From NCBI GenBank assembly GCA_012103575.1, contig WLWN01000001.1:1484538-1548537 (forward strand): 64,000 bases of DNA. The letters run 5' to 3'. Made by a program: the position numbers and the translations under genes. This stretch comes from Kiritimatiellia bacterium. Its GTDB lineage: Bacteria > Verrucomicrobiota > Kiritimatiellia > WLWN01. Below are positions 10,301 through 57,976 of this stretch, in pieces (the stretch's first letter is position 1; every line of letters begins with the position of its first letter). The notes beneath the pieces are model-generated. The model searched no databases and was not told the DNA's origin. It saw only the letters and a list, made by a program, of their open reading frames with translations.

Positions 10301-13300
10301 GCTATAGACAGTACCGATCGATTCGGAAGCAGGTACGCTTGCTCTTGAAGACCCGCCCATTGAGCACAAGCTTGCGGATAATCAGCTATAAAATAGTCTG
10401 TTAATGCTTTTAATGTTTGATATTCAAAAAACAAGGTTTTGGAAATCTCTCCAAACACGCCTTCCAGTTTCTGATTCAGCTGCGTGATCAATATCGAGTC
10501 GATCCCATAACGCTCCAAGGGCTCTTCCGAATCGATTTTCGAGATAGATAGCTTGATCATTTCTCCAAACAGTTTTTTGAATTCATACAAGGTTTTTTCT
10601 TGCAAAAGGTGAGGGTCCATGGCCGGTACGGGTGATTCTTTGACAGGCACTACGGTTTGATCGGCAAGGAAAACGTTTCTTATCTTCTCTACATCCCCCT
10701 CCATGACCATCACTTGAGAGGTTCCCGAAGATAAGCCCTGATAAAACGCTTCGATCCCGGTGGATGTTTGCATCGCCACCATGCCCGTTCTCTCTGTGAT
10801 CATCTGCTCGGTGGCTTCATCCACGCTCATTCCCCCTTCTTTCCATAACGGCCAATTCATCGAAAGCGTTTGGCCGCTTCTCTCTGAGTCTATTCGAACA
10901 TTGCGATACCTGGCAAAAGTATCCATAAACGCATTGGCCGTGGCGTAGTCCGCTTGACCCACGTTGCCGATAGCTCCGGATACGGAGGAAAACAAAACAA
11001 AAAAGTCTAAAGACAGATCCTGCGTGGCTTCATCCAGATAAATGACTCCCTCCACCTTCGGCTTTAGCGTCTCTTCAAACTCTTCCCGGGGTTTCTTCAA
11101 AATAAAATTGTCCCGAATCAATCCCGCGCTATGAAGAATGCCATTGATTCCCCCAAAATCGTTTCGAGTCTCTTCAATGAGCCTTTCAACCGCTTGTTGA
11201 TCGGAAACATCCACAGTATGGTATTCAACGTTTGCTCCCAGGCTTTCTAATTCTTTGAGCTTTTCTTTGATCGGTTCGCTGAGCTCTGAACGACCCGTGA
11301 GGATCAGTCTTGCGCTTTTCGTTCTTTCCGCAATCTCTTTGGCAAAGATCAGGCCCAGTCCTCCAGCGCCACCGGTGATTAAATAGACACCTCCTTCTTT
11401 CCAGGGAATCTCTTTCTGAGCATGAGCCGTTGACCTTTCTTCAAAAACCTGCACTAGACGTTTGGTTCCTTCATAGCGAATACACTGATCTTCCGGACAT
11501 TTTACATTCTCTTGGAGTCTAGAGATGATTTCTTTGGGTGGTTCTTCTTCGCCCACTGCAATCACCTGACCCATGAGTTTAGGGTTTTCCAAATGAGCGG
11601 TCTTTAACAACCCTGAAACCCCTGAAAAAGTTTGTTCGAACCCTTCAGCGGGAACCAATACCTGGAGCAAAACAGGACCTTCAGGTTTGCCCTCCACTAT
11701 CTTCTGAGTGCGTTTAAACAGGTCCAAGGCAAACTCTTCAAAGCGTTTTCCAAGCCTTTTTTGATCCGGCTTCAGTTCTATAAAAGATCGTTCAGAGGCT
11801 CTATGACCTACGGATTCATTCCTTTGAGTTAAACCGCACAAGAACACTTGATGGTCCGCATATTCGGGGATGTTTTGCTTTGGATCAACCGCTCTTTCTC
11901 GCCAAACCGGCTGGAACATCAAAGTCCCTGTCGTTTCCGATTTTTCTAAGACTCCTTCCGGGGTTTGGGAAAAGAAATCTCTCAGCTTCACACACACCTT
12001 CCCATTCTCATCACACAGATCAATGTCCAACTTCTGGACACGGGCCGTTGTTCCGCTGCTACCGGAACGGTGTACATGAGCCCACATTTTTTCTGAGCAG
12101 TAATCTATGATTTCAAGGCGGTTCAAGGAGGCTAAGAAGGGTTCTTGGTTTCCTTCTTTGCTCAAAGAGCTGCGAAGGACAGGCTTGGTTGTTGGGTTGT
12201 CCTCCATAGCTTTCTCCTCCGCCAAGCCTTTAGTGAACAAGTCAGCGGAGGCAGATTTTTGGTTCGTAAAGCCTGAGCCGATAGCAGCTTGAAGAGCTGA
12301 ATCCAAAAGGCTGGGATGAAGGGTGAATTGGTCTTTGGTCTCCAACACGCAAGAAGGGATCTTTAATTGGGCCAACACTTCATCATCGCCAACATAGAGT
12401 TTTTCTATTCCTTGGTGAGCGGGACCATATTCAATGCCTATTTTTTTAAAGACCGTATAGCATTCCTCGGCGCTTAAAACACGTTGAGTACACGTTTCCT
12501 GAAGGGCTTTCAGATCGAGCTTAGGGTGTTGGTCCGCTGAGGCGAACACCGCCACCCCTTGACTGTGCACGACGATTTCATCTTTTGAACTTTTTTCGTG
12601 TTTCGAATCTCGAAGTTCGAATTTCCCATCCACCGGAGGGGCCGTGTAGATTTCATAGGCGATTTCTCCATTATCTTCAGGGTAAAGCCCAATATGGACA
12701 TCCTGAGGTTGATCGTCCACAGCAAACGGCCACGCCCACACCACATTTTTGAGCTCTATTATTTGATTCTCTTTAGGAAATTCTCCAGAAGCCTGCTCTA
12801 CTGCCGCGCGCGCCATCTCCAGGTAAGCGACTCCAGGTAAAACCTTTTCTCCCTTTACCTGATGATCTTCCAAAAAGAACTCCTTACCGGTAAACATAGA
12901 GCTGAATCGCTGCTCTTCCAATGTCGAGGTATTCTCATGAACGAACGGATGCAGCCTCTTACTGACCATATCTTCGGCCATGCCGTTGGCTTGGCAAACT
13001 TGGTAAGCCTCTGACTTCTGTCTTCTGCCCTCTGTCCGTTCTACCCAATATCGCTCTCTTTCAAAGGGGTACGTAGGAAGGGATACCCTGTAACTAATTT
13101 TTGGATTGGCAAGGTTCGACCAATTCACCTTATAGCCCTGAACAAAAGCTTCTGCTAGTGTGAATAAATCTTTGTGATAGTTCGACTCATCTTTTGTCCG
13201 TTTATTTTCAAGTTTCGCTAAAATTTGATCACATTTTTCTTTGGTCTCTGTTGAGGCTTTAGAAGACCTTGAACTATACATGACTGAGTCCCGGCATGTT

Positions 13301-14904
13301 TTTCCCGTTAAAATACGCAGAATTTTGTTTCGCAAATCTTGTGCATCTTTTACAACGCAAGCAAAACGATACTTAAAATGCTTGCGCCCGACCTGCAAGG
13401 TATAAGCGATATCACGAATTGAAGGCTGTTCTCCAACCGCTTCGAACCAATCTGATAAATCATTGATTTTTTGGTTAAGAGACCCTTCTGTTTTAGCGGA
13501 TAGAGGGATTAAATAACATGGTGCCTTTTCTTTTCCCTCACGCCTCCCCTGTTCCGGAGCTTCCTCCAAGATTAAAAAAGAATTGGTTCCGCCTATACCT
13601 AAAGAATTTATACACGCTCGCCTGGGGCTTTGGTCTTTCACGGTCCATGGTTTAAGCTTTGTGTTTACATAAAAAGGTGTTTCGTTAAAATCAATCTTAG
13701 GGTTGGCCGTCTTATAGTTTATACAAGGGACTAAGGTTTTGTGTTTTAGACACATCGCTGTTTTTATCAAACTAGCAACTCCCGCTGCGATATCTAGATG
13801 ACCTATATTGTTTTTAACAGAACCCAACGCACAATAGTCCCCTTTATGCGTGGCAGGAGAATCAAACATGCGTGTTAAGGCTGTCACTTCCACCGGATCG
13901 CCCATAGCGGTGCCTGTACCATGCGCCTCAACATAATTCACGGTCTTGGGAGAAACCTTGGCCTTCTCAAAGGCTTTGCGCATACAACGCACTTGTCCGG
14001 TAGCCGTTGTGGCCATGTAGCTCATCTTCTGGCCACCGTCATTATTGAAAGCAGACCCTTTGATCACTGCATAGATTTGGTCATGATCCCTCATGGCCTG
14101 TTCCAGGGGCTTTAACAAAACTAACCCTAAGCCACTCCCAAAAACGATCCCTTGGGCATCGGCGTCAAACGCACGAACGTGACCATCATGGGAGAAGATG
14201 CTGTCTTTCTTTAAAGCATAGCCCACTCGATGGGGGATTCGGATATTCACGCCTCCGGCCAAGGCCATATCGCATTCCTGATGCAGAATACTTTGACACG
14301 CCAGATGAACCGCCACCAAAGAGGTCGAACAGGCCGTCTGCACGTTGATGCTTGGGCCTTTGATGTTCAATTTATAAGAAACCCTTGTACTGACAAAATC
14401 TTTATCATTGCCCAGGTGCTCTATGCCGCCTGTTGCACCACGGATCGTGGAATCATATCTCAGGCATTCCAGCAAATAATTGCTCACAGCTCCACCCGAA
14501 CCGCTAAAGACTCCAACCATAGGCACCAGCTTCTCTGGCACATAACCGGCATCCTCGAACGTGGCCCACGCACATTCGAGTAACAAGCGTTGTTGAGGAT
14601 CTAGTACTTTGGCTTCAACTGGAGGTATATTAAAAAAAGAGGCATCAAACTTGTCTATATCATCTAAAACAGGAGCGGCCTTAATGTAATGGGCCGCTTG
14701 GATAAAAGATTCTTCTACACCGGCTTCTCTCAACTCTTCATCTCTAAAAAAGGTAATGCTTTCTTTACCTTCTTTAAGGTTTTCAAAAAATTCAGGAATG
14801 GATGAGGCGCCGGGAAAGCGTCCGCTCATCCCAATGATGGCAATATCTTCACTCAGGACCTCTTTTTTCTTCTTTAGCATGTGCATCCACATCTTATCAC
14901 TCAA
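4312..14904 (-). CDS. trans-AT type polyketide synthase, 3530 aa: KS-DH-KR-ACP-KS-DH-ACP-KS-ACP, no integrated AT domains
   Basis: Three KS domains with active-site Cys ('TACSTS', 'MCSSSL', 'TACASS') plus 'EAHGTGT' and 'N(I/V)GH' motifs. Each KS is followed by a post-KS linker ('LSAKTEGSL...AYTLQVGRKHF', 'LPxYPFxRxRYW') with no AT. DH motif 'HxxxGxxxxP' appears twice ('DHQVKGEKVLPGVAYLEMA'). KR Rossmann 'ITGGAGGLGLIFAKEIA'. ACP serines 'GIDSI', 'GLDSI', 'GMESI'. Start ATG overlaps the ACP gene stop (ATGA). Confidence 0.9.
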   Translation of the reverse strand: MSDKMWMHMLKKKKEVLSEDIAIIGMSGRFPGASSIPEFFENLKEGKESITFFRDEELREAGVEESFIQAAHYIKAAPVLDDIDKFDASFFNIPPVEAKVLDPQQRLLLECAWATFEDAGYVPEKLVPMVGVFSGSGGAVSNYLLECLRYDSTIRGATGGIEHLGNDKDFVSTRVSYKLNIKGPSINVQTACSTSLVAVHLACQSILHQECDMALAGGVNIRIPHRVGYALKKDSIFSHDGHVRAFDADAQGIVFGSGLGLVLLKPLEQAMRDHDQIYAVIKGSAFNNDGGQKMSYMATTATGQVRCMRKAFEKAKVSPKTVNYVEAHGTGTAMGDPVEVTALTRMFDSPATHKGDYCALGSVKNNIGHLDIAAGVASLIKTAMCLKHKTLVPCINYKTANPKIDFNETPFYVNTKLKPWTVKDQSPRRACINSLGIGGTNSFLILEEAPEQGRREGKEKAPCYLIPLSAKTEGSLNQKINDLSDWFEAVGEQPSIRDIAYTLQVGRKHFKYRFACVVKDAQDLRNKILRILTGKTCRDSVMYSSRSSKASTETKEKCDQILAKLENKRTKDESNYHKDLFTLAEAFVQGYKVNWSNLANPKISYRVSLPTYPFERERYWVERTEGRRQKSEAYQVCQANGMAEDMVSKRLHPFVHENTSTLEEQRFSSMFTGKEFFLEDHQVKGEKVLPGVAYLEMARAAVEQASGEFPKENQIIELKNVVWAWPFAVDDQPQDVHIGLYPEDNGEIAYEIYTAPPVDGKFELRDSKHEKSSKDEIVVHSQGVAVFASADQHPKLDLKALQETCTQRVLSAEECYTVFKKIGIEYGPAHQGIEKLYVGDDEVLAQLKIPSCVLETKDQFTLHPSLLDSALQAAIGSGFTNQKSASADLFTKGLAEEKAMEDNPTTKPVLRSSLSKEGNQEPFLASLNRLEIIDYCSEKMWAHVHRSGSSGTTARVQKLDIDLCDENGKVCVKLRDFFSQTPEGVLEKSETTGTLMFQPVWRERAVDPKQNIPEYADHQVFLCGLTQRNESVGHRASERSFIELKPDQKRLGKRFEEFALDLFKRTQKIVEGKPEGPVLLQVLVPAEGFEQTFSGVSGLLKTAHLENPKLMGQVIAVGEEEPPKEIISRLQENVKCPEDQCIRYEGTKRLVQVFEERSTAHAQKEIPWKEGGVYLITGGAGGLGLIFAKEIAERTKSARLILTGRSELSEPIKEKLKELESLGANVEYHTVDVSDQQAVERLIEETRNDFGGINGILHSAGLIRDNFILKKPREEFEETLKPKVEGVIYLDEATQDLSLDFFVLFSSVSGAIGNVGQADYATANAFMDTFARYRNVRIDSERSGQTLSMNWPLWKEGGMSVDEATEQMITERTGMVAMQTSTGIEAFYQGLSSGTSQVMVMEGDVEKIRNVFLADQTVVPVKESPVPAMDPHLLQEKTLYEFKKLFGEMIKLSISKIDSEEPLERYGIDSILITQLNQKLEGVFGEISKTLFFEYQTLKALTDYFIADYPQACAQWAGLQEQAYLLPNRSVLSIAEEFPVLRALKSTQGCGRGLSVSMSRTGTQDPMAIIGMSGRYPQANTIEEYWEHLKSGKDCITEIPPERWSLNGFFHEDPQEAVAQGKSYSKWGSFLEGFADFDPLFFNISPREAMNIDPQERLFLQSCWEALEDAGCTREHLATQFNQRVGVFAGITKTGFNLYGPELKKQRGGISPHTSFSSVANRVSYLLNIQGPSMPIDTMCSSSLTAIHEACEHLRHGACELAIAGGVNLYLHPSTYIELCAQQMLSKDGQCKSFGKGGNGFVPGEGVGVVLLKRLSKAIEDQDHIYAVIRATSVNHGGKTNGYTVPSPKAQGALIRETLEKAGIDARSVSYMEAHGTGTELGDPIEVTGLTQAFQKDTLDTGFCALGSAKSNVGHLEAAAGIAGLTKIVLQMKYGQLAPSLHAMELNPNIHFSKTPFIVQQQLEDWKRPTLTIKGETKEYPRIAGVSSFGAGGVNAHAVIEEYLDESKVEGPKSQSKEGPYLIVLSAKDEDRLKAYVQHLIDYLQPLTPCLQDVAYTLQVGREAMEERLGLIVHSMEELKEKLQRFMDGKEDVEDLYLGQVKRNKETLDVFTADEDMAKIIDMWVRKGKYSKLLDLWVKGLILDWNKLYGDTPLRRISLPSYPFARVRYWIKGNAESGVRNAETGKELHPLLHENTSDVSELRFSSTFTGKEFFFADHQVRGEKVLPGAAYLEMAREAVKQACGEWAKDPQRIELKNVVWAMPIAVNGHPRQVNIGLFPEENGEIQYEIYSELEKDNGSVTTVPQQQLRDGMDTRVVHSQGVVEVCGVETSEGAPTAEPIDVQGLQETCTQRVLSADECYAAFKRMGIEYGPAHKGIEKLYVGENKVLAKLTLPSSIADTKDPFTLHPSLLDSALQASIGLNFANQQSSSADLFTDFSSAARCAKGEAMEDKPITKPVFRSSLSEGGDQEPFLASLERLEILDRCTESMWAWVQSCQGSPSSKQALKLDIDLCDDLGHVCVRMKAMEMQTYLEPFTEDSTQEQEARAGNQTDKEVQGKNELSNVDARSYALNKLTSIVTEITQIPKEKINVEADLEELGLDSIMITTLNQQVEKWLGKLDATLFFKYKTLSSLAKFLSEAYAADMMIAEQPRKIGARSLNGKVKVQHSKDLTSFGHARFSARFSGKQVSNEDIAIIGMSGRYPQAPDLMAFWDNLSQGKDCITEIPRDRFDYRSYFNTEKGRTDSLYCKWGGFLDGVDQFDPLFFNISPQDARFMDPQERLFLEMAWGCLETAGFIHPHWQREARNIGVFAGVTFNNYQLLMAEAAGPGPSYPANSQTFSIANRVSYFFNFTGPSFTLDTACASSLFAIHEACENLKRGACSLALAGGVNLTLHPSKYATLCSGGFASSDGRCHAFAADGDGYVPSEGVGVVLLKPYQRAKADGDSILAVIKGTGVSHDGKTQSYTVPNPVSQSKAIGAALAQARISPESISYVEAHGTGTALGDPIEIQGLMDVYTQHTDKKQFCAIGSVKSNIGHGEAAAGIGQLTKTVLQMQHQTLVPSLLHGPLNPNIDFKNSSFYVQEKKTTWEQPRLEGKAWPRRAGISSFGAGGVNVHVIIEEYLDESKSQKGERSKGEPVDGRTMDGAVSSVVIPLSAHVRSQLLELARNLHGYLKSNIQRPVSSIQHLAFTLQTKRALFRHRLAFVVNDTPDLIEQLKGYVNQDRNGGRETKYYEADTEKVGAALKLNGVKEDQDYLASLLKKRKMERLAQLWVQGTLIPWERLYEDNGGSVCLPLPNYPFLKRRYWMTEIVEKNKAKKEEGGGQNGRLSNPLAGPIISVSDQAKEDTSFLKQANGVERVPPPSRSETSTFVAALLDLSDMDRKEEVEEWIVEQVKALLGFASTEDVDLETGFFNMGMESIQAEKLIQDCRRQFGLTTLSDTVLFDYPTAPRLTDHVLEIIPWEDLYQQTVPSQDRLMEPTEEIDTETEIALIELFDGDLFDVSVYRDIDALSDEDVKRDLLNELQGKRYD

Positions 14905-20182: not shown

Positions 20183-20199
20183 CTTTTTTCTCCCATGGT

Positions 20200-20362
20200 C
20201 CTGGATCTGTCAGTTAAACGTGGGATTTCTGTGCGAATGCTTTGGAGGCAAAAGGTTGCAAAAAAACGCAGGCGCACCCGCTGGGTGCGTCGAGGCTTTT
20301 TTGTAATTCCTTTTGGCCCAAATGGTTCGTGCAGAAAACCGCGTTTAACTGACGGATCCAGG
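20200..20362 (+). mobile_element. MITE copy 1 (163 bp, ~45-bp imperfect terminal inverted repeats CCTGGATC(T/C)GTCAGTTAAACG..., 5-bp target-site duplication ATGGT)
   Basis: Left end 'cctggatctgtcagttaaacgtggg...', right end '...ccgcgtttaactgacggatccagg'. Flanked by ATGGT on both sides. >97% identical to copies at 53952 and 57816. Internal hairpin 'gcgcacccgctgggtgcg' bracketed by an A7 tract and a T6 tract. Sits 18 bp upstream of the LysM gene start, between murD and ftsW. Confidence 0.85.
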
Positions 20363-20405
20363 ATGGTTTGAGTGTTCAAAATATGTTTCGATATTATTTG
20401 TTTAT

Positions 20406-27503: not shown

Positions 27504-27900
27504 TCATAACGGATCCGGAATACTGTGCATACTGATTTTTTGCCGAGATGGAGTCTTCTTCTCTCGAAGAAAAGACACGAACAATTTGATCTTCGTTTGG
27601 CCATGACATCACACTCCCATTCCGCAACAAAGCGGCTTTAATATTCGGCAATGTTTTCATATTAGACCATTTATACTCTTCATTTAGAAACTGATTATAA
27701 ATCTTCTCCTTTTGAGCCTCTAAGTCCTGTATATAAACCCCTAATGCTTCACATCGACCATGTACCCACAAATAGGATAATGACAATATCGCCGCTAATA
27801 AAAGAATAGATGCTAATGGAGCGGGAAATGCAAATCCCCCTTCTTGTTTCTTCCTATTTTGTTTTTGTTTTTTTCTCTTCGGCATTTTTAATCCTTTCAA
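27496..27900 (-). CDS. Small bitopic membrane protein, FtsL-like by position
   Basis: 134 aa, Lys-rich N-terminus, one TM 'ILLLAAILSLSYLWV', then a coiled-coil-like segment. Located between rsmH and ftsI as ftsL is in dcw clusters. The true start is probably internal, since the ORF overlaps rsmH by 47 nt. Confidence 0.5.
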   Translation of the reverse strand: MKGLKMPKRKKQKQNRKKQEGGFAFPAPLASILLLAAILSLSYLWVHGRCEALGVYIQDLEAQKEKIYNQFLNEEYKWSNMKTLPNIKAALLRNGSVMSWPNEDQIVRVFSSREEDSISAKNQYAQYSGSVMND

Positions 27901-28807
27901 TGACTCTTAATTTAGAGGATCTAGCACGAGGATTTTGCTGAACCTCCTCCTGATCAGGTACAACGAATGTATGCGTTATCCATTGTGCGACCGGCATTGA
28001 ACCTTTCCAACGACTTCCTCCTTCGTTCAACGACTCCCAGCGGCCAACATGCTGGGAAAAGCACTGTTTAACGTTTCTATCTTCCAAACTATGATAAGAA
28101 ATAACAGCCAATCGGCCTCCCTCTCTCAACAATCCCACAGCTTCTTCCAACCCTTTAGACAAAGATTCGAGCTCTCTATTGACCGCTATTCGTAATGCCT
28201 GAAAAGTTTTGGTCGCTGGATGAATCCGCCCCCGCCTTCCCCCTTTTGCATCCGAAACAATCTGAGCAAGCTCCTTTGTCGTCTTAATCCGACCTTTCTG
28301 TCTGGCTAAAACGATCCTATTAGCAACACGCGAAGAGGCTTTTTCCTCGCCGAAATTCCATAAAATATCTGCGATTTCACCGCGATCATATGTATTCACA
28401 ATTTTTTCCGCGGTTACAGCCTGTGTTCGATCCATTCGCATATCCAATAACCCTTCATGCATAAAACTGAACCCTCTATCTCCCTGGTCAATTTGCTCTG
28501 AACTCATGCCCAAATCCATCACAATTCCATCGACTTCTTTTACACGTGCTTTCTGCGCCAACCCTTTAATATCTGAAAAGTTACCTAACAAAAGTTGACA
28601 TTGACCTTCCCGGTCTAACAACCGTTTTTCGGTCCGTTTAATAGCATCCTCATCACGATCAATACCTAATAATCGGCCGTCAACGCCTAACCGCTCTAAA
28701 AGGGCCTTTGCATGTCCACCACTCCCGACTGTTGCATCTATATAGACACCCTCTTTCTTTACGCTTAAAAGCTCCATCATCTGTATGAGCATGACCGGTT
28801 TATGCAT
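27854..28807 (-). CDS. rsmH: 16S rRNA (cytosine1402-N4)-methyltransferase
   Basis: 317 aa, 'HKPVML...YIDATVGSGGHA' SAM-MTase N-terminus characteristic of RsmH/MraW. Confidence 0.9.
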   Translation of the reverse strand: MHKPVMLIQMMELLSVKKEGVYIDATVGSGGHAKALLERLGVDGRLLGIDRDEDAIKRTEKRLLDREGQCQLLLGNFSDIKGLAQKARVKEVDGIVMDLGMSSEQIDQGDRGFSFMHEGLLDMRMDRTQAVTAEKIVNTYDRGEIADILWNFGEEKASSRVANRIVLARQKGRIKTTKELAQIVSDAKGGRRGRIHPATKTFQALRIAVNRELESLSKGLEEAVGLLREGGRLAVISYHSLEDRNVKQCFSQHVGRWESLNEGGSRWKGSMPVAQWITHTFVVPDQEEVQQNPRARSSKLRVIERIKNAEEKKTKTK

Positions 28808-28885
28808 CCGAACCCATTCATCATTTAACGCCTTACTCGTTTAGAGGGGCTAAGAAATCTGTGAGCCTCTTTCAAAACAAGGCTC

Positions 28886-29095
28886 CTATGTAGCCTTTTT
28901 AGGTCTTGTCGTCCTCGCTGCCAAAGGTTTATTCATCATAATCCACTCCCCTTCAGCCATAGCCGGCCCTCCCCATAGCTGAAAACACAACCGGTCACGT
29001 CCATTTGGCAGCATCAAATACCGATTTTCATCTTTCTGAACACCATATAACCCCCGGTTAACTTTCAAAAATTTTGCAATTTTAAACATACTCAT
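28886..29095 (-). CDS. Hypothetical small protein (69 aa)
   Basis: Good SD (AAAGGAACT ACA ATG) and sits between mraZ and rsmH. No recognisable domain. Confidence 0.3.
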   Translation of the reverse strand: MSMFKIAKFLKVNRGLYGVQKDENRYLMLPNGRDRLCFQLWGGPAMAEGEWIMMNKPLAARTTRPKKAT

Positions 29096-29112
29096 TGTAG
29101 TTCCTTTTTTTT

Positions 29113-29204
29113 AGTCAAAAGTCGAAGGTTGAAAGACACATCCTCGAACTTTTGACTTTTATTGACACTGATTCTTCATATTAGACATTTGACTTTCGAC
29201 CCTC
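29113..29204 (-). repeat. Palindromic GTCGAAAG/GTCAAAG-type repeat element (copy R-a) immediately 3' of the mraZ stop
   Basis: 'agtcaaaagtcgaagg ... cctcgaacttttgact' forms a hairpin, and 'gacatttgactttcgaccctc' abuts the mraZ stop TAA at 29205-29207. Same motif family as 37248-37300, 42410-42510 and 42878-42995. Confidence 0.6.
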
Positions 29205-29672
29205 TTAAAATCCAACATACCTCGCTGCTTCGCCCAGCCCAGACTGATTTATAGAACCCTCCACTTCATTCCACTGATCAGGGTTCCACAATTCAAACCC
29301 ATCAAAAGTTCCGACTAAAACAACTTGATTGACCAGACTAGCAAATTCGAGTAGTTCGTCTTTTACGCGAATTCGTCCTTGACTATCCCAGGGCACTAAA
29401 TCAGAGCGAGAGGCGAGCGTACGAGCAAGCTGTCGGCCTTTGGCATCTGCAATTGAAAGGTTTCGCAGTCTTTCAAGCCTTCGGGTCATTTCACGGGCAG
29501 GGTAAACACACAGGCACTTGTCGTTTACCCCAGGCAGTACAAACAACCGCTTTGGTGCTCCCGCCAACTCTCTCCAATCTGAAGGAACCGTTAATCTCTT
29601 CTTCGGATCCAAATTGTGAACATAGGTATTTACAAAAACACCTTGCGAACTTATCCCACTATCCATATGCAT
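29205..29672 (-). CDS. mraZ: Transcriptional regulator MraZ
   Basis: 'VHNLDPKKRLTVPSDWR' matches the MraZ DxxGR motif, and the C-terminal half repeats it. The longest ORF starts at 29720, but a TTGACA-N17-TTTAAA promoter overlaps that 5' end, so the start is more likely the ATG at 29672 or 29666 ('MHMDSG'). Confidence 0.8.
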   Translation of the reverse strand: MHMDSGISSQGVFVNTYVHNLDPKKRLTVPSDWRELAGAPKRLFVLPGVNDKCLCVYPAREMTRRLERLRNLSIADAKGRQLARTLASRSDLVPWDSQGRIRVKDELLEFASLVNQVVLVGTFDGFELWNPDQWNEVEGSINQSGLGEAARYVGF

Positions 29673-29703
29673 ATCTTTTTGGTCCACTTTTCCGTATCTC
29701 CAT

Positions 29704-29738
29704 GACACTTTAAACCACATCGCCCCACTTTATGTCAA
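29704..29738 (-). promoter_or_regulatory. Putative Pmra promoter with MraZ-operator-like direct repeats
   Basis: Minus strand reads 'TTGACAtaaaGTGGGgcgatGTGGTttaaaGTGTC'. A sigma70-like -35/-10 pair overlaps three GTGGG-like repeats at 10-bp spacing, the arrangement bound by MraZ in E. coli. Confidence 0.4.
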
Positions 29739-35377: not shown

Positions 35378-35959
35378 AACCATTCGCCAACCATGAGTTG
35401 GATAGGGAGATTTTCGAGGATTCGGAGCCAGTTAATATGTAAAGCGTTAGCTTTTGTGAAAGGGCAGAATAAGTAGAGAAAAGCAGGTAGCGGTTAAATA
35501 TAAATTACAATTTAACCAGAGAGATAAGTTTTAGGGACGGAAGAGTCAGAGAGATTAGTAAAAGCTTGAAATTGAAGGGGTAAAATGAAGAGGATACCAA
35601 TAAAAGATTGTGCCTTAGTTATTCAGTATAGACAAGCAGCCAAATGTATCCACTCGTTGTTCAAAGCAGTAAGATGCAGAATGAATCTTTTGGCAAGATT
35701 TCTGGCCCACGAAACACACGAATGTTCACGAAAAAAAGAGTCATTAATTCCTTGTCTTAAATTTGTGCTGATTCGTGTGTTTCGTGGGCAGAAATTTTTC
35801 TGTTTCCTTTGGTTGCAGCTCTGCTGCTCCATGCTCTTTGCGCTCTCCCTGTTAAACATAACCATCTTTGCCCAGAACCTCAATGAAAGTTGGACGGTAA
35901 CGGTGGCCGGCCAAATTGTGTAAGTCAATCCCAATGGAACCTTTCGTATCCCTAATATC

Positions 35960-37249
35960 TTGACCCCTGACCAATTTGGCAATGCGGGACCGGGATCTCC
36001 GCCCGGTTTTTTAGGCGATGACTTGGTCCGCCTCACCGGATACACGACCGTGAGCGGTCAAACCACCTATGTGTATAGTGATTACTTTCAGATCAAACAG
36101 GCCGGGACCTATGGCGTAACGAACTTGACCTTTACGAATACGCCCCCTCCCCTTCCGGTGTCGATTCGGGCTGTTGTTGACGATCCGACGTTGACGACTC
36201 AAACTCAAGTTCACGTAACCGCCCTCTATGCAAATGGTGGTTCCAGTGATGTAACGCCCCGAGCCCAAGGATCGATTTATCGCATCAGTAATCTAAGCAT
36301 TGCTACGGTCAGTAGCAACGGTCTTGTTACAGCTCTTAAGGAGGGTACGGCCGTGGTGACGGTGGTGAATGATGGCGCTACGTCGGTTACGCGAATAGAC
36401 GTTCTTCCAGGGGCGACTTTAACGACATTAACTGGTTTTGTCCAAGATCAGAATGGGGCTCCTGTGGCTAACTCAACAATCAATTTGCTTGGTGTAGTGG
36501 GTTCAACAACAACGGATTCTCAAGGGCGTTTTACCCTTCCGGGACTAGCGGTCTCCTCTAACATTTTTGAGGTCATCGTTCAGGTCTTTACAACAAACAA
36601 TACGCTTTTTGGAGTCCCTGTTTCAGTGCCCCTGGTGTCCGGAGGATTTACAGATGTTGGAATCATGACCATTGATAGCTTATGTGATGTGTCTCCAATA
36701 AACTGTGTGGATACCGATAGCGATGGTCTTTCTGATACGTTGGAGGTTGCCTTGGGATACAATGCCAATAGCGTTGACTCTGATACAAACGGTGTTCTTG
36801 ATGGGGCAGAGAATTATGATGCAGATGGCCTTTCTAACACAGGCGAAGCATTAGTCGGCGCTGATCCCACCAATATGGATACGGATAATGACAGCATTCT
36901 GGATGGAGACGAAGATAGTGATTTTGATGGACTCCTGGATGGCCAGGAACTCTCTCTTGGCACCGATCCCTTAGATCCAGATACGGATAACGATTGGTGG
37001 AACGATGAAGTGGAGAATCAATTTAATAGTGATCCATTAGATCCTACAGTGACTCCTGATGCATTAGTTGTAGCAACGCCCCTTGTAGAGACATTTGTTT
37101 CCGACACAACAGGAACCGGGGTGGACCTAAGTTTAACAGTGGGTCAACCTCCGGTCTCTACCTTTGTTTCTGATGTAACAGGGAATGGGGTAGAATTGGG
37201 TTTAACAGTGGGTCAGCCCCCTGTGACCGTTTCAACGAATGCGCCATGA
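35960..37249 (+). CDS. Surface protein with BIG2 Ig-like domain, carboxypeptidase-regulatory-like domain, TSP3-type Ca-binding repeats and a 23-aa tandem repeat; N-terminal signal-peptide exon cut off by an in-frame TAA
   Basis: 'SNLSIATVSSNGLVTALKEGTAVVTVV' (BIG2). 'DTDSDGLSDTLE...DSDTNGVLDG...DTDNDSILDGDEDSDFDGLLDG' (TSP3). Tandem 'TFVSD(T/V)TG(T/N)GV(D/E)L(S/G)LTVGQPPV' at 37088-37237. The upstream ORF at 35585-35923 in the same frame carries a signal peptide ('FFCFLWLQLCCSMLFALSLLNITIFAQN') and ends 'WTVTVAGQIV' with TAA at 35924-35926. The sequence 'VNPNGTFRIPNI' then continues in frame. Confidence 0.7.
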   Translation: MTPDQFGNAGPGSPPGFLGDDLVRLTGYTTVSGQTTYVYSDYFQIKQAGTYGVTNLTFTNTPPPLPVSIRAVVDDPTLTTQTQVHVTALYANGGSSDVTPRAQGSIYRISNLSIATVSSNGLVTALKEGTAVVTVVNDGATSVTRIDVLPGATLTTLTGFVQDQNGAPVANSTINLLGVVGSTTTDSQGRFTLPGLAVSSNIFEVIVQVFTTNNTLFGVPVSVPLVSGGFTDVGIMTIDSLCDVSPINCVDTDSDGLSDTLEVALGYNANSVDSDTNGVLDGAENYDADGLSNTGEALVGADPTNMDTDNDSILDGDEDSDFDGLLDGQELSLGTDPLDPDTDNDWWNDEVENQFNSDPLDPTVTPDALVVATPLVETFVSDTTGTGVDLSLTVGQPPVSTFVSDVTGNGVELGLTVGQPPVTVSTNAP

Positions 37250-37300
37250 GAAGAGAAGAAGTCAAATGTCAGAAATCAGAAGTCAAAGGTCATAAGTCCG
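37248..37300 (+). repeat. GTCAAAG-type repeat element (copy R-b) immediately after the stop codon
   Basis: 'TGAGAAGAGAAGAAGTCAAATGTCAGAAATCAGAAGTCAAAGGTCATAAGTCCGAG'. Shares the 'TGAGAAGAGAAGAGTCAAAGGTC' head with copy R-c at 42410. Confidence 0.5.
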
Positions 37301-40984: not shown

Positions 40985-42412
40985 ATGAATTTTAAAGATT
41001 ATGAAGTCGGAAATTTTTATGATGAGATGTTTGAGTCTAATCAAACGGCACGCACGTGCGCTCAACTTCTGACGAAGAAAATTGAATCATTACCGCCGGG
41101 CGAACTTAAACGACGGCAAGCCGCCGCAGAACGTTCTCTATACAGCATGGGCATTACGTTTAATGTATATGGAGAAGAAGCAGAGCGGGAAAAAATATGG
41201 CCTTTTGATGTCATACCCCACGTCATTGAATCCACTGAGTGGAATCGGATTGAAAAAGGTTTGAAACAAAGGATACAAACTTTAAACCTTTTCCTTGATG
41301 ATGTTTATAACGATCAAAAAATAATAAAGGACAAGGTTATTCCAGAAGAGATCATCCGATCCTCTTCAGGTTTTCTAGAAGCATGCATCGGTCTAAAACC
41401 GCCCCACGGAATCTGGCCGCATATTACTGGAACAGACTTAATTCGGGATCAAGAGGGTCAACTGTATGTGCTAGAAGACAATATGCGCGTTCCATCGGGA
41501 GTCTCCTATGTACTCGCCAATCGCAATCTGATGAAGCGTACGTTTCCAGAAGTGTTCAACACCTTAAACGTGAAACGTATTAATGATTATCCAACTCACT
41601 TACTTGACATGCTATCCGGTATCGCCCCACCCCATCATGATAATCCACAAGTGGCTCTTTTAACACCCGGCATCCACAACTCCGCCTATTTCGAACACAC
41701 GTTTTTAGCACAGCAGATAGGAGCTGAACTCGTAGAAGGCCGTGATCTTGTAGTTTCGGATGGGTATGTATCTATGCGTACAACACACGGACTCCAACGT
41801 GTGGATATGATTTATCGTCGTATTGATGATTTATTTTTAGATCCTAACGTGTTCCACAAACATTCAACATTAGGCGCGGCCGGATTAATGGACGCCTACC
41901 GAGCAGGCCGTGTAGCCATCGCCAATGCCCCTGGAACAGGTGTTGCTGATGATAAAGTCATATATGCGTTTGTTCCTCAAATGATTAAGTATTATCTCGA
42001 TCAAGAATCGCTTATACCCAATGTCCCAACGTATATATGTGCCGATGAAAAGAGCTTGGCATATACCCTTTCGAATTTAGATACACTGGTCGTTAAACCC
42101 GCTAGCGAAGCAGGAGGGTATGGGATGTTAGTAGGGCCCCCTTCTTCGAAAAAAGAACAAGAAAAGTTCGCGGATAAAATTAAAAAGAATCCTCGAAATT
42201 ATATTGCCCAACCCACGATCGCGCTTTCCCGAGCCCCTGTTATTGTCGACGATCATTTTGAAGGTCGTCATGTGGATCTCCGACCTTTGATTCTGTACGG
42301 AAAAGATATTTATGTCCTGCCGGGGGGACTAACCCGAGTCGCTTTACCCAAAGATTCACTCGTTGTAAACTCTTCGCAAGGGGGAGGCAGCAAAGATACA
42401 TGGGTGGTGTGA
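40985..42412 (+). CDS. Circularly permuted ATP-grasp type 2 protein (Anbu-operon gene 1)
   Basis: 475 aa. The family-typical gene order with alpha-E, Anbu and transglutaminase follows. Confidence 0.85.
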
Positions 42413-42510
42413 GAAGAGAAGAGTCAAAGGTCGAAAGTCGTAAAGTCGAAAGTCATAAAGAGAAAGAACAGTCTTGGCCTTAACGACCTTCGACTTTCGA
42501 CCAACAAAAG
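42410..42510 (+). repeat. Palindromic GTCGAAAG repeat element (copy R-c) with a 12-bp perfect stem
   Basis: 'TGAGAAGAGAAGAGTCAAAGGTCGAAAGTCGtaaagtcgaaagtcataaag...CGACTTTCGACC'. GGTCGAAAGTCG (42428-42439) pairs with CGACTTTCGACC (42491-42502). Begins at the stop codon of the ATP-grasp gene. Confidence 0.6.
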
Positions 42511-42524
42511 AAAGGAAAGATGTT

Positions 42525-42869
42525 GTGTCTAACGTTGAAACATTTGAAGATTTAAGAATTTGGCAAGAGGCTCGGGGTCTAGTAAAAGAAATATATTCAG
42601 ACGTTGGAAGAGGCACACCTGCTGGTACTGATTATGGATTTATAAGCCAAATTCAACGAGCCGGCATCTCTATCATGAACAATATCGCTGAAGGTTTCGA
42701 ACGGTCATCTGATGCTGATTTTCTAGATCTCTTGATATTTCAAAGGGGTCATGTGGAGAGGTTCGAAGCATGTACTACCCGGCAGAAGATCTGGGATATA
42801 TTACAACCGATATTGCACATCAACGACGTGATAAAGCGAAACAAATCGCGAGAGGAGTGGCATCATTAA
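42525..42869 (+). CDS. Four-helix-bundle protein (TIGR02436 / 23S rRNA intervening-sequence protein family)
   Basis: 'FEDLRIWQEARGLVKEIY...ISQIQRAGISIMNNIAEGFERSSDADFLDLL' fits the family consensus. GTG start at 42525 preceded by SD AAGGAAAG. Flanked by repeats R-c and R-d. Interrupts the ATP-grasp to alpha-E adjacency. Confidence 0.8.
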   Translation: MSNVETFEDLRIWQEARGLVKEIYSDVGRGTPAGTDYGFISQIQRAGISIMNNIAEGFERSSDADFLDLLIFQRGHVERFEACTTRQKIWDILQPILHINDVIKRNKSREEWHH

Positions 42870-42877
42870 CCCATCAT

Positions 42878-42995
42878 CTCAGACCTTGAAGACAGAGAGT
42901 CAAAAGTCGAAAGGTCTAAAGTCGAAGGAAGGAGAAAATTCTTTCTCTTATCGGCCTTGGACTTTCGACTTTCAGACCTTCGACCAAAAAGCTCC
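42878..42995 (+). repeat. Palindromic GTCGAAAG repeat element (copy R-d)
   Basis: 'agtcaaaagtcgaaaggtctaaagtcgaagg ... ccttggactttcgactttcagaccttcgacc' forms an imperfect ~18-bp stem hairpin between the four-helix-bundle gene stop and the alpha-E start. Confidence 0.6.
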
Positions 42996-42998
42996 CCC

Positions 42999-43935
42999 AT
43001 GCTAAGTCGAGTTGCAAATGCTATATACTGGATGAGCCGATATGTTGAGCGGGCCGCCAACATCGCACGCTTCATTGAAGTAAATTGGTACCTGATGCTA
43101 GATTTACCCACGGAAACCCGAGAACAATGGAAACCGCTTGTCGACGTCACGGGCGATGGAGATGTATTTAAAGAAAAATACAAAACACCGACCCGCGAAC
43201 ATGTCATCTCTTTTCTCACCTTTGAGACCTCATATGCACACTCCGTTATTTCATGTATTCAATCCGCTCGAGAAAATGCATTGGCTGTACGTGACAGAAT
43301 TTCACCTGAAATGTGGGAGCATATGAACGCTCTTTATCATCTTCTCACGGATGCATCAAAAAATGCCTATAGGCATAACGAAAACCCCGAATTTTATAAC
43401 CAGATTAAGATAGCGGGCATGTTGATGGGCGGCATTGCTCATGACACCATGAACCATGATGAAGGATGGCACTTCTTTCGATTAAGACGACAGCTCGAAC
43501 GCGCGGATAAAACGTCGCGGATGCTCGATGTAAAATACTTTATCCTTCTTCCCAGTATAGACTACGTAGGAACCCCCTACGATGATGTACAATGGGCCGC
43601 CCCTCCAATCTGTAAGTGGTCTAGAAAGTTATCGGCAACGATACGGACGCATTGCTCCAGATCGCATTGTACAAATGCTTCTTTTAGATCGAACGTTCCC
43701 CCGTTCCGCTCAGAACTGTCTGATCGCCACGGAAAATTCTCTACGGGTTATATCAAGCACGCCTATAGGAACGTTCCAAAATGAAGCCGAACAACACTTA
43801 GGGCAATTATGCTCAGAATTAATGTATACGGACGTGAGCCAAATCTTTGAAATCGGTGTCCATGAATTTGTTATTGGCCTTCAAGCAAAGATCAATTTGG
43901 CAAATAACGCTATTTTTGATACCTTCTTCGCATAA
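42999..43935 (+). pseudogene. Alpha-E domain protein (Anbu-operon gene 2), frameshifted
   Basis: Starts 'MLSRVANAIYWMSRYVERAANIARFIEVN' (ATG 42999). Frame 1 becomes junk ('CKWSRKLSATIRTHCSRSHC') after 'DDVQWAA'. The family-like C-terminus 'LQSVSGLESYRQRYGRIAPDRIVQMLLLDRTFPRSAQNCL...' continues in the +1 frame. The shift is at a C4 tract, 43600-43603. Confidence 0.7.
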
Positions 43936-53925: not shown

Positions 53926-53951
53926 CCATCCACCTACTAAGTAGAATAAAA

Positions 53952-54114
53952 CCTGGATCCGTAAGTTAAACGTAGGATTTCTGTGCGAATGCTTTGGAGG
54001 CAAAAGGTTGCAAAAAAACGCAGGCGCACCCGCTGGGTGCGTCGAGGCTTTTTTGTAATTCCTTTTGGCCCAAATGGTTCGTGCAGAACACCGCGTTTAA
54101 CTGACGGATCCAGG
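53952..54114 (+). mobile_element. MITE copy 2 (TSD TAAAA)
   Basis: Same 163-bp element, flanked by TAAAA on both sides. Lies between convergent glnE and menE. Confidence 0.85.
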
Positions 54115-54260
54115 TAAAACACATATAACAAAAACTCTGCAGAAGCATCCGATTCCGACTTTTTATTACACAACTGATAATTTTTCGGACTATGAAAACT
54201 CGACATCTGAGTCAAATAATCATTGATGATGTGTTAGTGGACGTTCGTTAAAGTCACTTA

Positions 54261-57815: not shown

Positions 57816-57976
57816 TGGATCCGTCAGTTAAACGTGGGATTTCTGTGCAAATGCTTTGGAGGCAAAAGGTTGCAAAAAAACGCAGGCGCACCCGCTGGGT
57901 GCGTCGAGGCTTTTTTGTAATTCCTTTTGACCCAAATGGTTCGTGCAGAAAACCGCGTTTAACTGACGGATCCAGG
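57816..57976 (+). mobile_element. MITE copy 3 (TSD TTCTT)
   Basis: Same element with the left terminus mutated to CTTGGATCC. Flanked by TTCTT on both sides. Sits in the divergent menA/exonuclease promoter region. Confidence 0.85.

Follow-up and report, generated by a model that had tools for sequence, protein, structure and literature searches.

Heptamer-array inverted repeats behind stop codons in a Kiritimatiellia genome: members of a cross-phylum class associated with PF05635 genes

Introduction

The intervening sequence (IVS) in the 23S rRNA of Coxiella burnetii can carry an open reading frame (ORF): in this form, an S23p ORF lies within a 28-bp terminal stem, and the whole element, 428-444 nt long, is excised by RNase III (PMC4990558). 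A different precedent comes from repetitive extragenic palindromes (REPs), for which the REP-associated tyrosine transposases (RAYTs) were linked to REP doublets forming hairpins (REPINs) because the gene is flanked by repeats while most repeats stand alone (PMC3116915). In this study, we investigated four intergenic elements, R-a to R-d, which are built of tandem heptamers and lie at stop codons in a 64,000-nt stretch of DNA from a Kiritimatiellia bacterium (assembly GCA_012103575.1, contig WLWN01000001.1, positions 1,484,538 to 1,548,537 of the forward strand), hereafter the window. Two of them, R-c and R-d, bracket a gene of the PF05635 family, to which the 23S rRNA IVS proteins belong.

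Tandem repeats with 7-nt units have been described as the TAACTGA repeats of Beggiatoaceae, Cyanobacteria and Bacteroidetes, with 2-6 copies per set (PMC4679880), and as the GAC(C/T)AAT arrays of Nostoc (bioRxiv 10.1101/2022.06.06.494920), in both cases without a linked gene. Long simple-sequence repeats (LSSRs) with 7-nt units are known in some bacterial genomes (Mrazek 2007, to the extent summarised in PMC4679880). Conversely, PF05635 genes have been described without flanking repeats (PMC4990558, PMC10053308 and a Candidate Phyla Radiation (CPR) preprint), and one study found PF05635-type genes inserted between cas genes (PMC3936711). The pentameric barrel of Avd, the accessory protein of diversity-generating retroelements (DGRs), binds an RNA stem-loop with all five protomers in a cryo-EM structure, the same residues of each protomer touching flipped-out bases (bioRxiv 10.1101/2023.10.23.563531). 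In the literature that we searched, the coverage of which was incomplete, we found neither the repeat sequence described as an element nor a paper linking the PF05635 gene to the arrays.

Results

Four heptamer-array elements at stop codons

The initial annotation of the window had reported four copies of a palindromic repeat, at 29113-29204, 37248-37300, 42410-42510 and 42878-42995, and on reading the sequence we recovered all of them at these coordinates. R-a to R-d share one repeat unit of 7-8 nt, (R)GTC(R)AA, which is arranged in tandem and present in the window as GTCGAAA, GTCAAAA and GTCGTAAA. The four share one plan, in which a stop codon is followed by a purine-rich leader of about 10 nt and then by 3-5 tandem units; in R-a, R-c and R-d, the GTC array is followed by a loop and mirror-image complementary units. 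Tandem Repeats Finder (TRF) reported a period of 7, plus 15 as the double unit, at 42422-42460 and 42898-42926, with complementary arrays at 42484-42502 and 42951-42985, and an inverted-repeat search recovered the arm pairs of R-a, R-c and R-d. The elements are composed as follows.

29184-29207, minus strand: R-a part 1, the mraZ stop TAA (29205-29207), GAG and the one-armed array GGTCGAA-AGTCAAA-TGTC, which reads as a GAC array at 29184-29200 on the plus strand
29113-29157, minus strand: R-a part 2, an ORF-less hairpin AGTCAAAAGTTCGAGG...CCTTCGACTTTTGACT, then A8, with the ATG of a 69-aa ORF 17 nt further on
37247-37300, plus strand: R-b, the TGA of the Big_2/TSP3 gene (37247-37249), leader GAAGAGAAGAA and a degenerate GTC array (AGTCAAATGTCAGAAATCAGAAGTCAAAGGTCATAAGTC), the complementary arm being absent
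42410-42502, plus strand: R-c, the CP_ATPgrasp_2 TGA (42410-42412), leader GAAGAGAAGA, five GTC units (42423-42454), a loop and three GAC units (42485-42501)
42887-42985, plus strand: R-d, the ancestral IVS-protein TGA (42887-42889), leader AGACAGAGA followed by GTCAAAAGTC, four GTC units (42899-42923), a loop and four GAC units (42960-42984)

The stop codon is a constant part of this layout. R-a had been said to abut the mraZ stop, and it does so, beginning 3 nt past the TAA on the minus strand. Two copies had also been said to start with one and the same TGA-containing string. The TGA is indeed the stop of the upstream gene in R-b and R-c, followed in both by the common leader GAAGAGAAGA, but the exact string TGAGAAGAGAAGAGTCAAAGGTC occurs in R-c alone, R-b reading TGAGAAGAGAAGAAGTCAAATGTC. 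R-d also lies at a stop codon once a 1-nt frameshift of the intervening gene is repaired, and the ATG of the Alpha-E gene stands downstream of it, at 42999. R-b and R-c have the non-repetitive leader TGAGAAGAGAAGA in common, and R-c and R-d share features of loop and tail, which argues for copying and against independent slippage. R-a to R-d are paralogous members of a single dispersed family. When the flanks of R-a, R-c and R-d were inspected, with no empty site for comparison, no direct duplication was seen of the kind left at target sites by miniature inverted-repeat transposable elements (MITEs); the arms behave as inverted repeats.

Folding and chance expectation

We then compared the folding energy of each element with that of shuffled sequences. 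The results showed stable folds for the R-a core (29110-29160; -18.9 kcal/mol, z = -5.9), R-c (42420-42505; -27.9 kcal/mol, z = -4.2) and R-d (42895-42988; -36.3 kcal/mol, z = -3.8), while R-b (37258-37300), which has the purine-rich 5' (GTC) arm alone, showed no fold (-1.5 kcal/mol, z = +0.2). The long hairpins that had been annotated in all four copies are thus present in three, R-b being a one-armed remnant. The hairpin part of R-a is limited to 29113-29157, and 29184-29204 is a separate one-armed array. A 12-bp perfect stem, GGTCGAAAGTCG/CGACTTTCGACC, had been singled out in R-c and is present there.

The motif GTCRAAAG occurred 18 times in the window, compared with 5.1 +/- 2.3 times in shuffles, and nine of these occurrences lay within about 290 nt of the elements. 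Six arrays had three or more GTC or GAC units spaced 7-8 nt apart, against 1.46 in shuffles; all six were inside the four elements and none was in coding sequence. The density in coding sequence is therefore not similar to that in the elements, which form a discrete family and not a compositional artefact. Rfam gave zero matches at gathering score across the window, rRNA included, so a known RNA family was rejected; on 42350-43050, only chance-level miRNA and snoRNA matches were obtained.

A decaying PF05635 gene between R-c and R-d

The R-c/R-d pair brackets one inserted, decaying PF05635 gene. This cassette and the other genes that adjoin the elements are listed below.

42410-42985, plus strand: whole cassette of R-c, gene and R-d, about 576 nt
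42525-42889, plus strand: PF05635/TIGR02436 gene for a 23S rRNA IVS protein, a four-helix bundle, with a GTG start at 42525 and the ancestral TGA at 42887-42889
40985-42412, plus strand: circularly permuted ATP-grasp type 2 gene (CP_ATPgrasp_2), host gene 5' of the cassette
42999-43935, plus strand: Alpha-E domain protein gene, host gene 3' of the cassette, frameshifted
29205-29720, minus strand: mraZ (PF02381), adjoining R-a
27854-28807, minus strand: rsmH, in the mraZ-rsmH operon
35960-37249: Big_2/TSP3 protein gene, upstream of R-b

In the IVS-protein gene, 1 nt is missing from the T run at 42719-42722; beyond it, the protein continues in another frame, and tblastn matched it in two. The ORF as read matched PF05635 positions 1-69 of 106 (E 1e-18). 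After one T was restored in the run, the resulting 121-aa protein matched positions 1-102 of 106 (E 8e-31), TIGR02436 "four helix bundle protein" and PDB 2GSC, the pentameric XCC0516 structure (E 1e-11). The window sequence was identical over 4.6 kb in three other assemblies, indicating that the frameshift is real.

To place the insertion, we compared the spacer between the ATP-grasp and Alpha-E genes, which form an operon with a transglutaminase gene, with that of two distant operons of the same gene order (L205 and L206). The spacer measures 586 nt in the window and consists entirely of R-c, the gene and R-d, compared with 59 and 75 nt in the two distant operons, whose spacers are array-free. 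The earlier suggestion that the elements mark insertion hotspots fits the R-c/R-d pair, in which an inserted gene is bracketed. The C-terminus of the ATP-grasp protein was the shortest among the 45 homologues inspected and ends directly after the conserved DTWV[VLI], which fits the TGA as part of the element.

We also folded 42405-43000 as one RNA. The energy was -172.1 kcal/mol, compared with -147.9 +/- 6.4 kcal/mol in shuffles (z = -3.8). Both the minimum free energy (MFE) and the centroid structure paired the outer arms (R-c 5' and R-d 3') with each other and likewise the inner arms (R-c 3' and R-d 5'), placing the ORF in the loop; the local R-c and R-d hairpins are an equally available alternative to this predicted long-range fold. 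Altogether, the window holds one ORF-bearing cassette (frameshifted), one ORF-less hairpin (R-a) and one decayed one-armed copy (R-b).

Two observations concern the host operons. The Alpha-E gene is split into ORFs 42957-43784 and 43582-43935, its orthologues having 322-333 aa, and this frameshift is likewise identical in the three other assemblies, so the ATP-grasp/Alpha-E operon may be decaying. Between mraZ and rsmH, the 69-aa ORF that begins past the R-a hairpin (28886-29095, minus strand) had no Pfam or NCBIfam match and has its end at a small hairpin, GAGCCT/AGGCTC; mraZ and rsmH are separated by about 400 nt, which we believe to be unusually long.

Heptamer arrays beside PF05635 genes

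To examine the flanks of related genes, we used 80 metagenomic loci encoding relatives of the window IVS protein (42-69% identity). Within 250 nt of the gene, 84 GTC/GAC arrays of at least three units were found in 37 kb; the other 239 kb held 22, so that the density differed 25-fold. A test that presupposes no unit, asking for a 5-mer found three or more times upstream whose reverse complement is found three or more times downstream, was positive for 27 of 68 genes and for 1 of 134 control ORFs; for any tandem array, the numbers were 40 of 68 and 10 of 134 control ORFs in the same loci. The flank-flank duplex energy was -48 kcal/mol for the genes and -36 kcal/mol for control ORFs (p = 1.6e-4). 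These results showed that the architecture is strongly associated with the PF05635 gene family.

The arrays are also oriented, with GTC upstream and GAC downstream of the gene in 11 loci and the reverse in one. In the typical layout, a host stop codon is followed by a GTC array, 1-50 nt, the ORF, its stop, 1-40 nt and a GAC array; L094, from a Marinimicrobia metagenome-assembled genome (MAG), is a clear example. Both PF05635 genes present among the 120 hairpin loci listed in the scan described below likewise had an array close by, adjacent in L094 and about 250 nt from the ORF end in L096. The same plan occurs with other units beside relatives of the gene, including GAGTTAC with AACTCAG, AAGAGTT with AACTCTT, AAGTTAAA with TTTAACTT, GAGTAAC with GTTACTC, and GTCAACA; in L168, GTCAACA/GTCAATA arrays stand on the flanks of the IVS-protein gene.

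Within this sample, L163-L166 (human-gut contigs, at about 2880-3500) represent the same IVS-protein locus with a varying number and order of GAGTTAC/GAGTTGC/GAGTTAT units upstream and of AACTCAG/AACTCTA units downstream, that is, array-length polymorphism within a population. The L094 gene (6746-7090, minus strand) has an in-frame TGA where relatives have Trp (IIA*QKAKDL) and is either a pseudogene or one in which TGA is read as Trp; the long GAC array adjoining it holds an assembly gap.

ORF-less hairpins across bacterial phyla

We scanned one genome per species with the pattern GTCGAAAGTC-N24-54-GACTTTCGAC and obtained at least 120 loci, of which 120 were listed. The pattern itself enforces two units per arm, and, owing to natural hairpins, any 10-mer is found together with its complement much more often than expected at random, so the raw match count was rejected as a statistic; the case for a class rests on the periodic units, because the pattern did not enforce them. 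Among the listed matches, 82 of 120 had at least three units on both arms and 52 at least four, and the unit period was 7 in 283 cases and 8 in 52. Hosts of these matches include Flavobacterium, Mucilaginibacter, Gemmataceae, Nitrospira, Acidobacteriota, Chloroflexota, Armatimonadota, Patescibacteria and Kiritimatiellae; more than 12 phyla are represented, among them Bacteroidota, Planctomycetota, Nitrospirota, Verrucomicrobiota/Kiritimatiellae, Gemmatimonadota, Marinimicrobia and some Bacillota. The RGTC core was constant in the matches listed, and the 3-5-nt spacer varied by lineage, giving AGTCTTA and AGTCTTG in Mucilaginibacter, AAGTCATA in Flavobacterium, AGTCGAG and AGTCCAA in Acidobacteriota, and in Gemmataceae GGTCGAAAGTCGTAAAGTCGAAG, identical to the R-c string. 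The stop codon lay -1 to +32 nt from the first GTC in about 80 of the 119 gene-tail flanks of the listed matches, with a mode of 3-7 nt, and TAG or TAA frequently overlapped the first AGTC unit; the distance between hairpin and stop codon was usually 0-10 nt.

Three further comparisons addressed arrays other than the scanned-for hairpins and the pairing of arms. With the listed hairpins masked, 44 further GTC/GAC arrays of at least four units remained in 874 kb, compared with 4-17 for control trinucleotides. Outside the scanned-for hairpins, the GTC arm preceded the GAC arm in 8 cases to 0, two of the eight being R-c and R-d, and viral contigs gave seven GTC-first matches (four distinct sequences) against none for the reversed pattern. 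An element's own arms paired at -41.4 kcal/mol, compared with -34.2 kcal/mol for arms swapped between elements (p = 4e-10).

Hairpins were retained at two orthologous intergenic sites of Flavobacterium, represented by four species (L014/L047/L058/L067) and five species (L032/L043/L044/L066/L116). At one site, the stems were near-invariant and the loop variable; at the other, whole units were gained or lost on both arms, and the hairpin extends from the stop codon to within about 4 nt of the next ATG. An all-against-all BLAST of 1573 ORFs within 1.5 kb revealed no recurrent transposase, reverse transcriptase or nuclease beside the ORF-less hairpins, the only recurrence being that of orthologous Flavobacterium neighbourhoods. 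Without an ORF, the element is a hairpin measuring about 45-145 bp, which takes up the spacer behind a stop codon. This architecture is widespread, and the elements of the window are members of a cross-phylum class of heptamer-array inverted repeats.

One locus of a different appearance is L077 (1000-6800, Cytophagia MAG), in which about ten GTC arrays, mostly one-armed and in one orientation, occupy 6 kb and separate toxin-antitoxin-like genes (nucleotidyltransferase, HicA, DUF5615/DUF433 and PIN). Three paralogous coiled-coil ORFs of about 130 aa lie among these arrays, adjoined by an N-terminal GDP-mannose-dehydratase-like fragment. The cassette-junction or integron-like reading prompted by this locus is not general, the hairpins of L021 and L042 flanking housekeeping genes.

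Other repeats in the window

The window contains an unrelated MITE-like element of about 165 bp in three copies (20199-20363, 53951-54115 and 57816-57974). Their bodies are near-identical and their flanks differ, the mean column identity being 88% when the alignment includes the flanks; the terminal inverted repeats, CCTGGATCCGTCAGTTAAACGTGG, measure 22-25 nt. Some distance upstream of the Big_2/TSP3 gene (about 170 nt), at 35705-35789, there is a long imperfect hairpin, GCCCACGAAACACACGAATG..., whose 35-nt arms (80% complementary) enclose a loop of 15 nt. Heptamer arrays also occur at 5342-5377 and 5481-5533, in-frame within a 3530-aa ORF (4312-14904, minus strand). On the coding strand, one of them reads GAGTCAAAAAGTCAAAAAGGTGAAAGGTCGAAAGGTGAA and encodes a Ser/Lys/Glu/Gly-rich stretch (ESKSQKGERSKGE), and a CCAGTAT-type array lies about 120 nt off. 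By their appearance, these arrays belong to the same repeat class, tolerated here within a protein linker.

Discussion

The cassette resembles the 23S rRNA IVSs of Leptospira and Coxiella in several respects. It carries an ORF of the same family (PF05635/S23p), and its complementary termini are predicted to enclose this ORF in a long stem, over about 576 nt here and 428-444 nt in Coxiella (PMC4990558). Both systems include ORF-less and ORF-bearing forms, and the ORF is frequently in decay, by frameshift here and by reductive evolution in Coxiella. Unlike the rRNA IVSs, which sit in helices 9, 25 or 45, the window elements are found in protein-coding operons right after stop codons; their stems consist of tandem heptamers, their copies are dispersed, and excision by RNase III would for them be an analogy.

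With REPs and bacterial interspersed mosaic elements (BIMEs), the elements share being short, dispersed, extragenic, hairpin-forming and located inside operons. The initial annotation had called them REP/BIME-like with a distinct sequence; this holds for their position (extragenic, intra-operon, after stops), but their arms are tandem heptamer arrays and not REP-type palindromes. No GTAG/CTAC head or REP-type palindrome was present in any of the four copies, and REPs in the strict sense are not supported. The likeness to the REPIN-RAYT system is one of logic, in that one gene type is flanked by repeats, most repeats are solitary (PMC3116915), and lineage-specific repeat flavours have a common architecture. 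The linked protein differs, being a small four-helix bundle and not a Y1/HUH transposase, and a catalytic mobility function is not evident in it.

Like the short tandemly repeated repetitive (STRR), LSSR and TAACTGA repeats, the elements consist of a few tandem 7-nt intergenic units that abut or overlap start and stop codons, the arms here having mostly 3-5 units. Those repeats have been described as direct, mostly upstream of start codons and without a linked gene, whereas the arms described here are mostly inverted and linked to PF05635. STRR1-3 of heterocystous cyanobacteria have the units CCCCAGT, TTGGTCA and CAACAGT, which become RGTC heptamers when re-phased; they differ in sequence from the units of the Kiritimatiellae window. 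Avd has a homologous fold and offers a precedent for periodic recognition of a hairpin, but the hairpin it binds is a single 11-bp stem next to its template and not a heptamer array. In the immediate neighbourhood of the IVS-protein gene, the part of the window that was screened, there was no reverse transcriptase or template repeat/variable repeat (TR/VR) pair; the ATP-grasp and Alpha-E genes adjoin it. Integron attC cassettes likewise present a small ORF with an imperfect palindrome right after its stop, and L077 has runs of small genes with the repeat between them; here, unlike attC, the repeats also stand behind ordinary housekeeping genes. By inspection there were no integron GTTRRRY/RYYYAAC core sites, and no integrase was evident beside the cassette, a screen that did not extend to the rest of the window.

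We consider the elements to be forms, with and without an ORF, of an IVS-like and REP-like element, the long RNA stems of which probably act as RNase III and exonuclease-barrier sites (probability about 0.55). The ORF-less hairpins may stand to the ORF-bearing cassette as a miniature version, in the way that IVSs lacking an ORF relate to those that have one, or REPINs to the REPs flanking RAYTs (PMC3116915); the shared GTC-first polarity supports this. In a polycistronic transcript, the arms would form stems of about 12-17 pairs (R-a and R-c, locally), about 30 pairs (R-d) and about 45-50 pairs (the long-range stem predicted to surround the ORF). By analogy with rRNA IVSs, such stems could be cut by RNase III, block 3' exonucleases, or both. 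Processing of this kind would detach the mRNA of the cassette from that of the host operon and determine how stable the upstream cistron is; stabilisation of transcripts, also proposed in the initial annotation, is plausible. A stem so near a stop codon could in addition disturb translation termination. Array length would shift by slippage, and the complementarity of the arms could be maintained by palindrome-correcting template switching, by selection, or by both.

Several points weigh against the interpretation of the elements as two forms of one IVS-like element. A PF05635 gene lay within 8 kb in only two of the 120 listed ORF-less hairpin loci, whether searched with a single sequence or with a 74-sequence family hidden Markov model (HMM); these are L094 and L096, and a rule that every hairpin adjoins such a gene is rejected. 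The ORF-less and ORF-bearing forms are therefore tied only through their shared architecture and the enrichment on the gene side, and the gene might have a preference for inserting into host hairpins that were already there. In the 68-gene test, no arrays were detectable for about 40% of the relatives, and the 80 loci include near-duplicates (e.g. L163-L166, L171/L181 and L134/L138), so the effective sample is somewhat smaller. The window has a complete hairpin on either side of the gene, whereas elsewhere a GTC arm most commonly precedes the gene and a GAC arm follows it. The gene-order comparison behind the insertion used two distant operons and not close relatives; the nearest ATP-grasp homologue on a usable contig was 69% identical, and the L124 contig stops 226 nt past the gene. 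As to the scan, 12 of the 120 listed matches were plain hairpins, and the raw number of at least 120 matches is in itself not beyond chance, genomes being rich in hairpins. A search for three conserved 23S motifs in the window and the fetched loci gave one isolated match, judged spurious, and so yielded no classical rRNA element for comparison. Finally, RNase III cleavage, stabilisation and an effect on termination are functions that we infer from analogy.

The main alternative is that of host-owned hairpins of the REP/BIME type, acting as 3'-end stabilisers or termination attenuators, with an ancestry separate from PF05635; the gene would then be a selfish cassette inserting in or beside them. 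The scarcity of the gene near the listed hairpins speaks for this explanation, as do the ordinary housekeeping neighbours (YbaK-like, GlmU-like and NUDIX genes in L021 and L042, mraZ here), the conservation at orthologous sites across Flavobacterium species and the fact that no other gene family recurs beside the hairpins. REPs reportedly stabilise upstream mRNA and, when within about 15 nt of a stop codon, are said to lower expression through ribosome stalling. Host hairpins would leave unexplained why the GTC-first polarity is fixed (8:0, and 7:0 in viral contigs, from four distinct sequences) and the same as around the gene, and why so many unit flavours occur on both sides of gene relatives in many phyla; we consider this explanation somewhat unlikely. 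The 25-fold association with one gene family argues, in turn, against regarding the elements as functionless mutational by-products, that is, heptamer microsatellites expanded by slippage and quasi-palindromes made by template switching past the last constrained codon. So do the recurrence of the RGTC core in more than 12 phyla, the near-invariant stems beside a variable loop at one orthologous Flavobacterium site, and, within the window, the leader and the loop and tail features that are shared between copies. A neutral origin would agree with the variation in unit number at one locus between strains (L163-L166) and between Flavobacterium species, with the 7-nt-unit long simple-sequence repeats of some bacteria (Mrazek 2007, in the summary of PMC4679880) and with the related array in-frame in the 3530-aa ORF at 5481-5533, but on balance we hold it to be improbable.

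Transcription termination, which the initial annotation had offered as one possible role, found no support. Stable stem-loops immediately 3' of stop codons might suggest Rho-independent terminators, yet there was no terminator-like site in 28700-29400 or 42300-43100, no stem is followed by a U-tract (R-a is followed by A8 on the mraZ strand), the elements lie within the conserved operons mraZ-rsmH and ATP-grasp/Alpha-E/transglutaminase, and in Flavobacterium the ATG of the next gene comes about 4 nt past the hairpin. It is extremely improbable that the elements are such terminators.

A more specific extension of the IVS-like interpretation is that the PF05635 pentamer is the cognate protein of the arrays, with one protomer binding each unit, and that the ORF-less hairpins are its non-autonomous partners. 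Arms of mostly 3-5 units and the pentameric state of the homologue Avd make one unit per protomer conceivable. In the 120 listed hairpins, the number of units per arm peaked at 4-5 and dropped sharply at 6, in a set that is constrained by the search pattern; the arrays beside the gene peaked at 4 units and reached 12. A five-unit arm was accordingly rejected as a pentamer signature and is suggestive only, and we regard the extension as unlikely. If the pentamer does bind the arrays, they would form a REPIN-RAYT-like or IVS-like selfish system in the mRNA operons of many phyla, the cyanobacterial STRR heptamers would be accounted for, and a large orphan protein family would gain a function.

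Heptamer tandem repeats of the STRR/LSSR kind have, to our knowledge, been known since about 1990 and still lack a function, and we know of no characterised relative of the very large orphan IVS/four-helix-bundle family other than Avd, the DGR accessory protein. These repeats, these proteins and the origin of rRNA intervening sequences are three loose ends that may be one phenomenon. There are practical consequences as well: the arrays break assemblies, as shown by the N-gaps inside arrays in L094 and L077, and the presence of very stable structures only a few nucleotides away from stop and start codons bears on gene calling and on expression models. If the hairpins are ORF-less IVS-like cassettes in ordinary operons, the repeats would have a concrete candidate partner, and the protein a testable role in repeat binding and RNase III processing. 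They would then constitute a new REP-like class positioned at the stop codons of genes in phyla such as Bacteroidota, Planctomycetota, Acidobacteriota, Chloroflexota and Nitrospirota; several of these phyla include members that can be cultivated and are genetically tractable.

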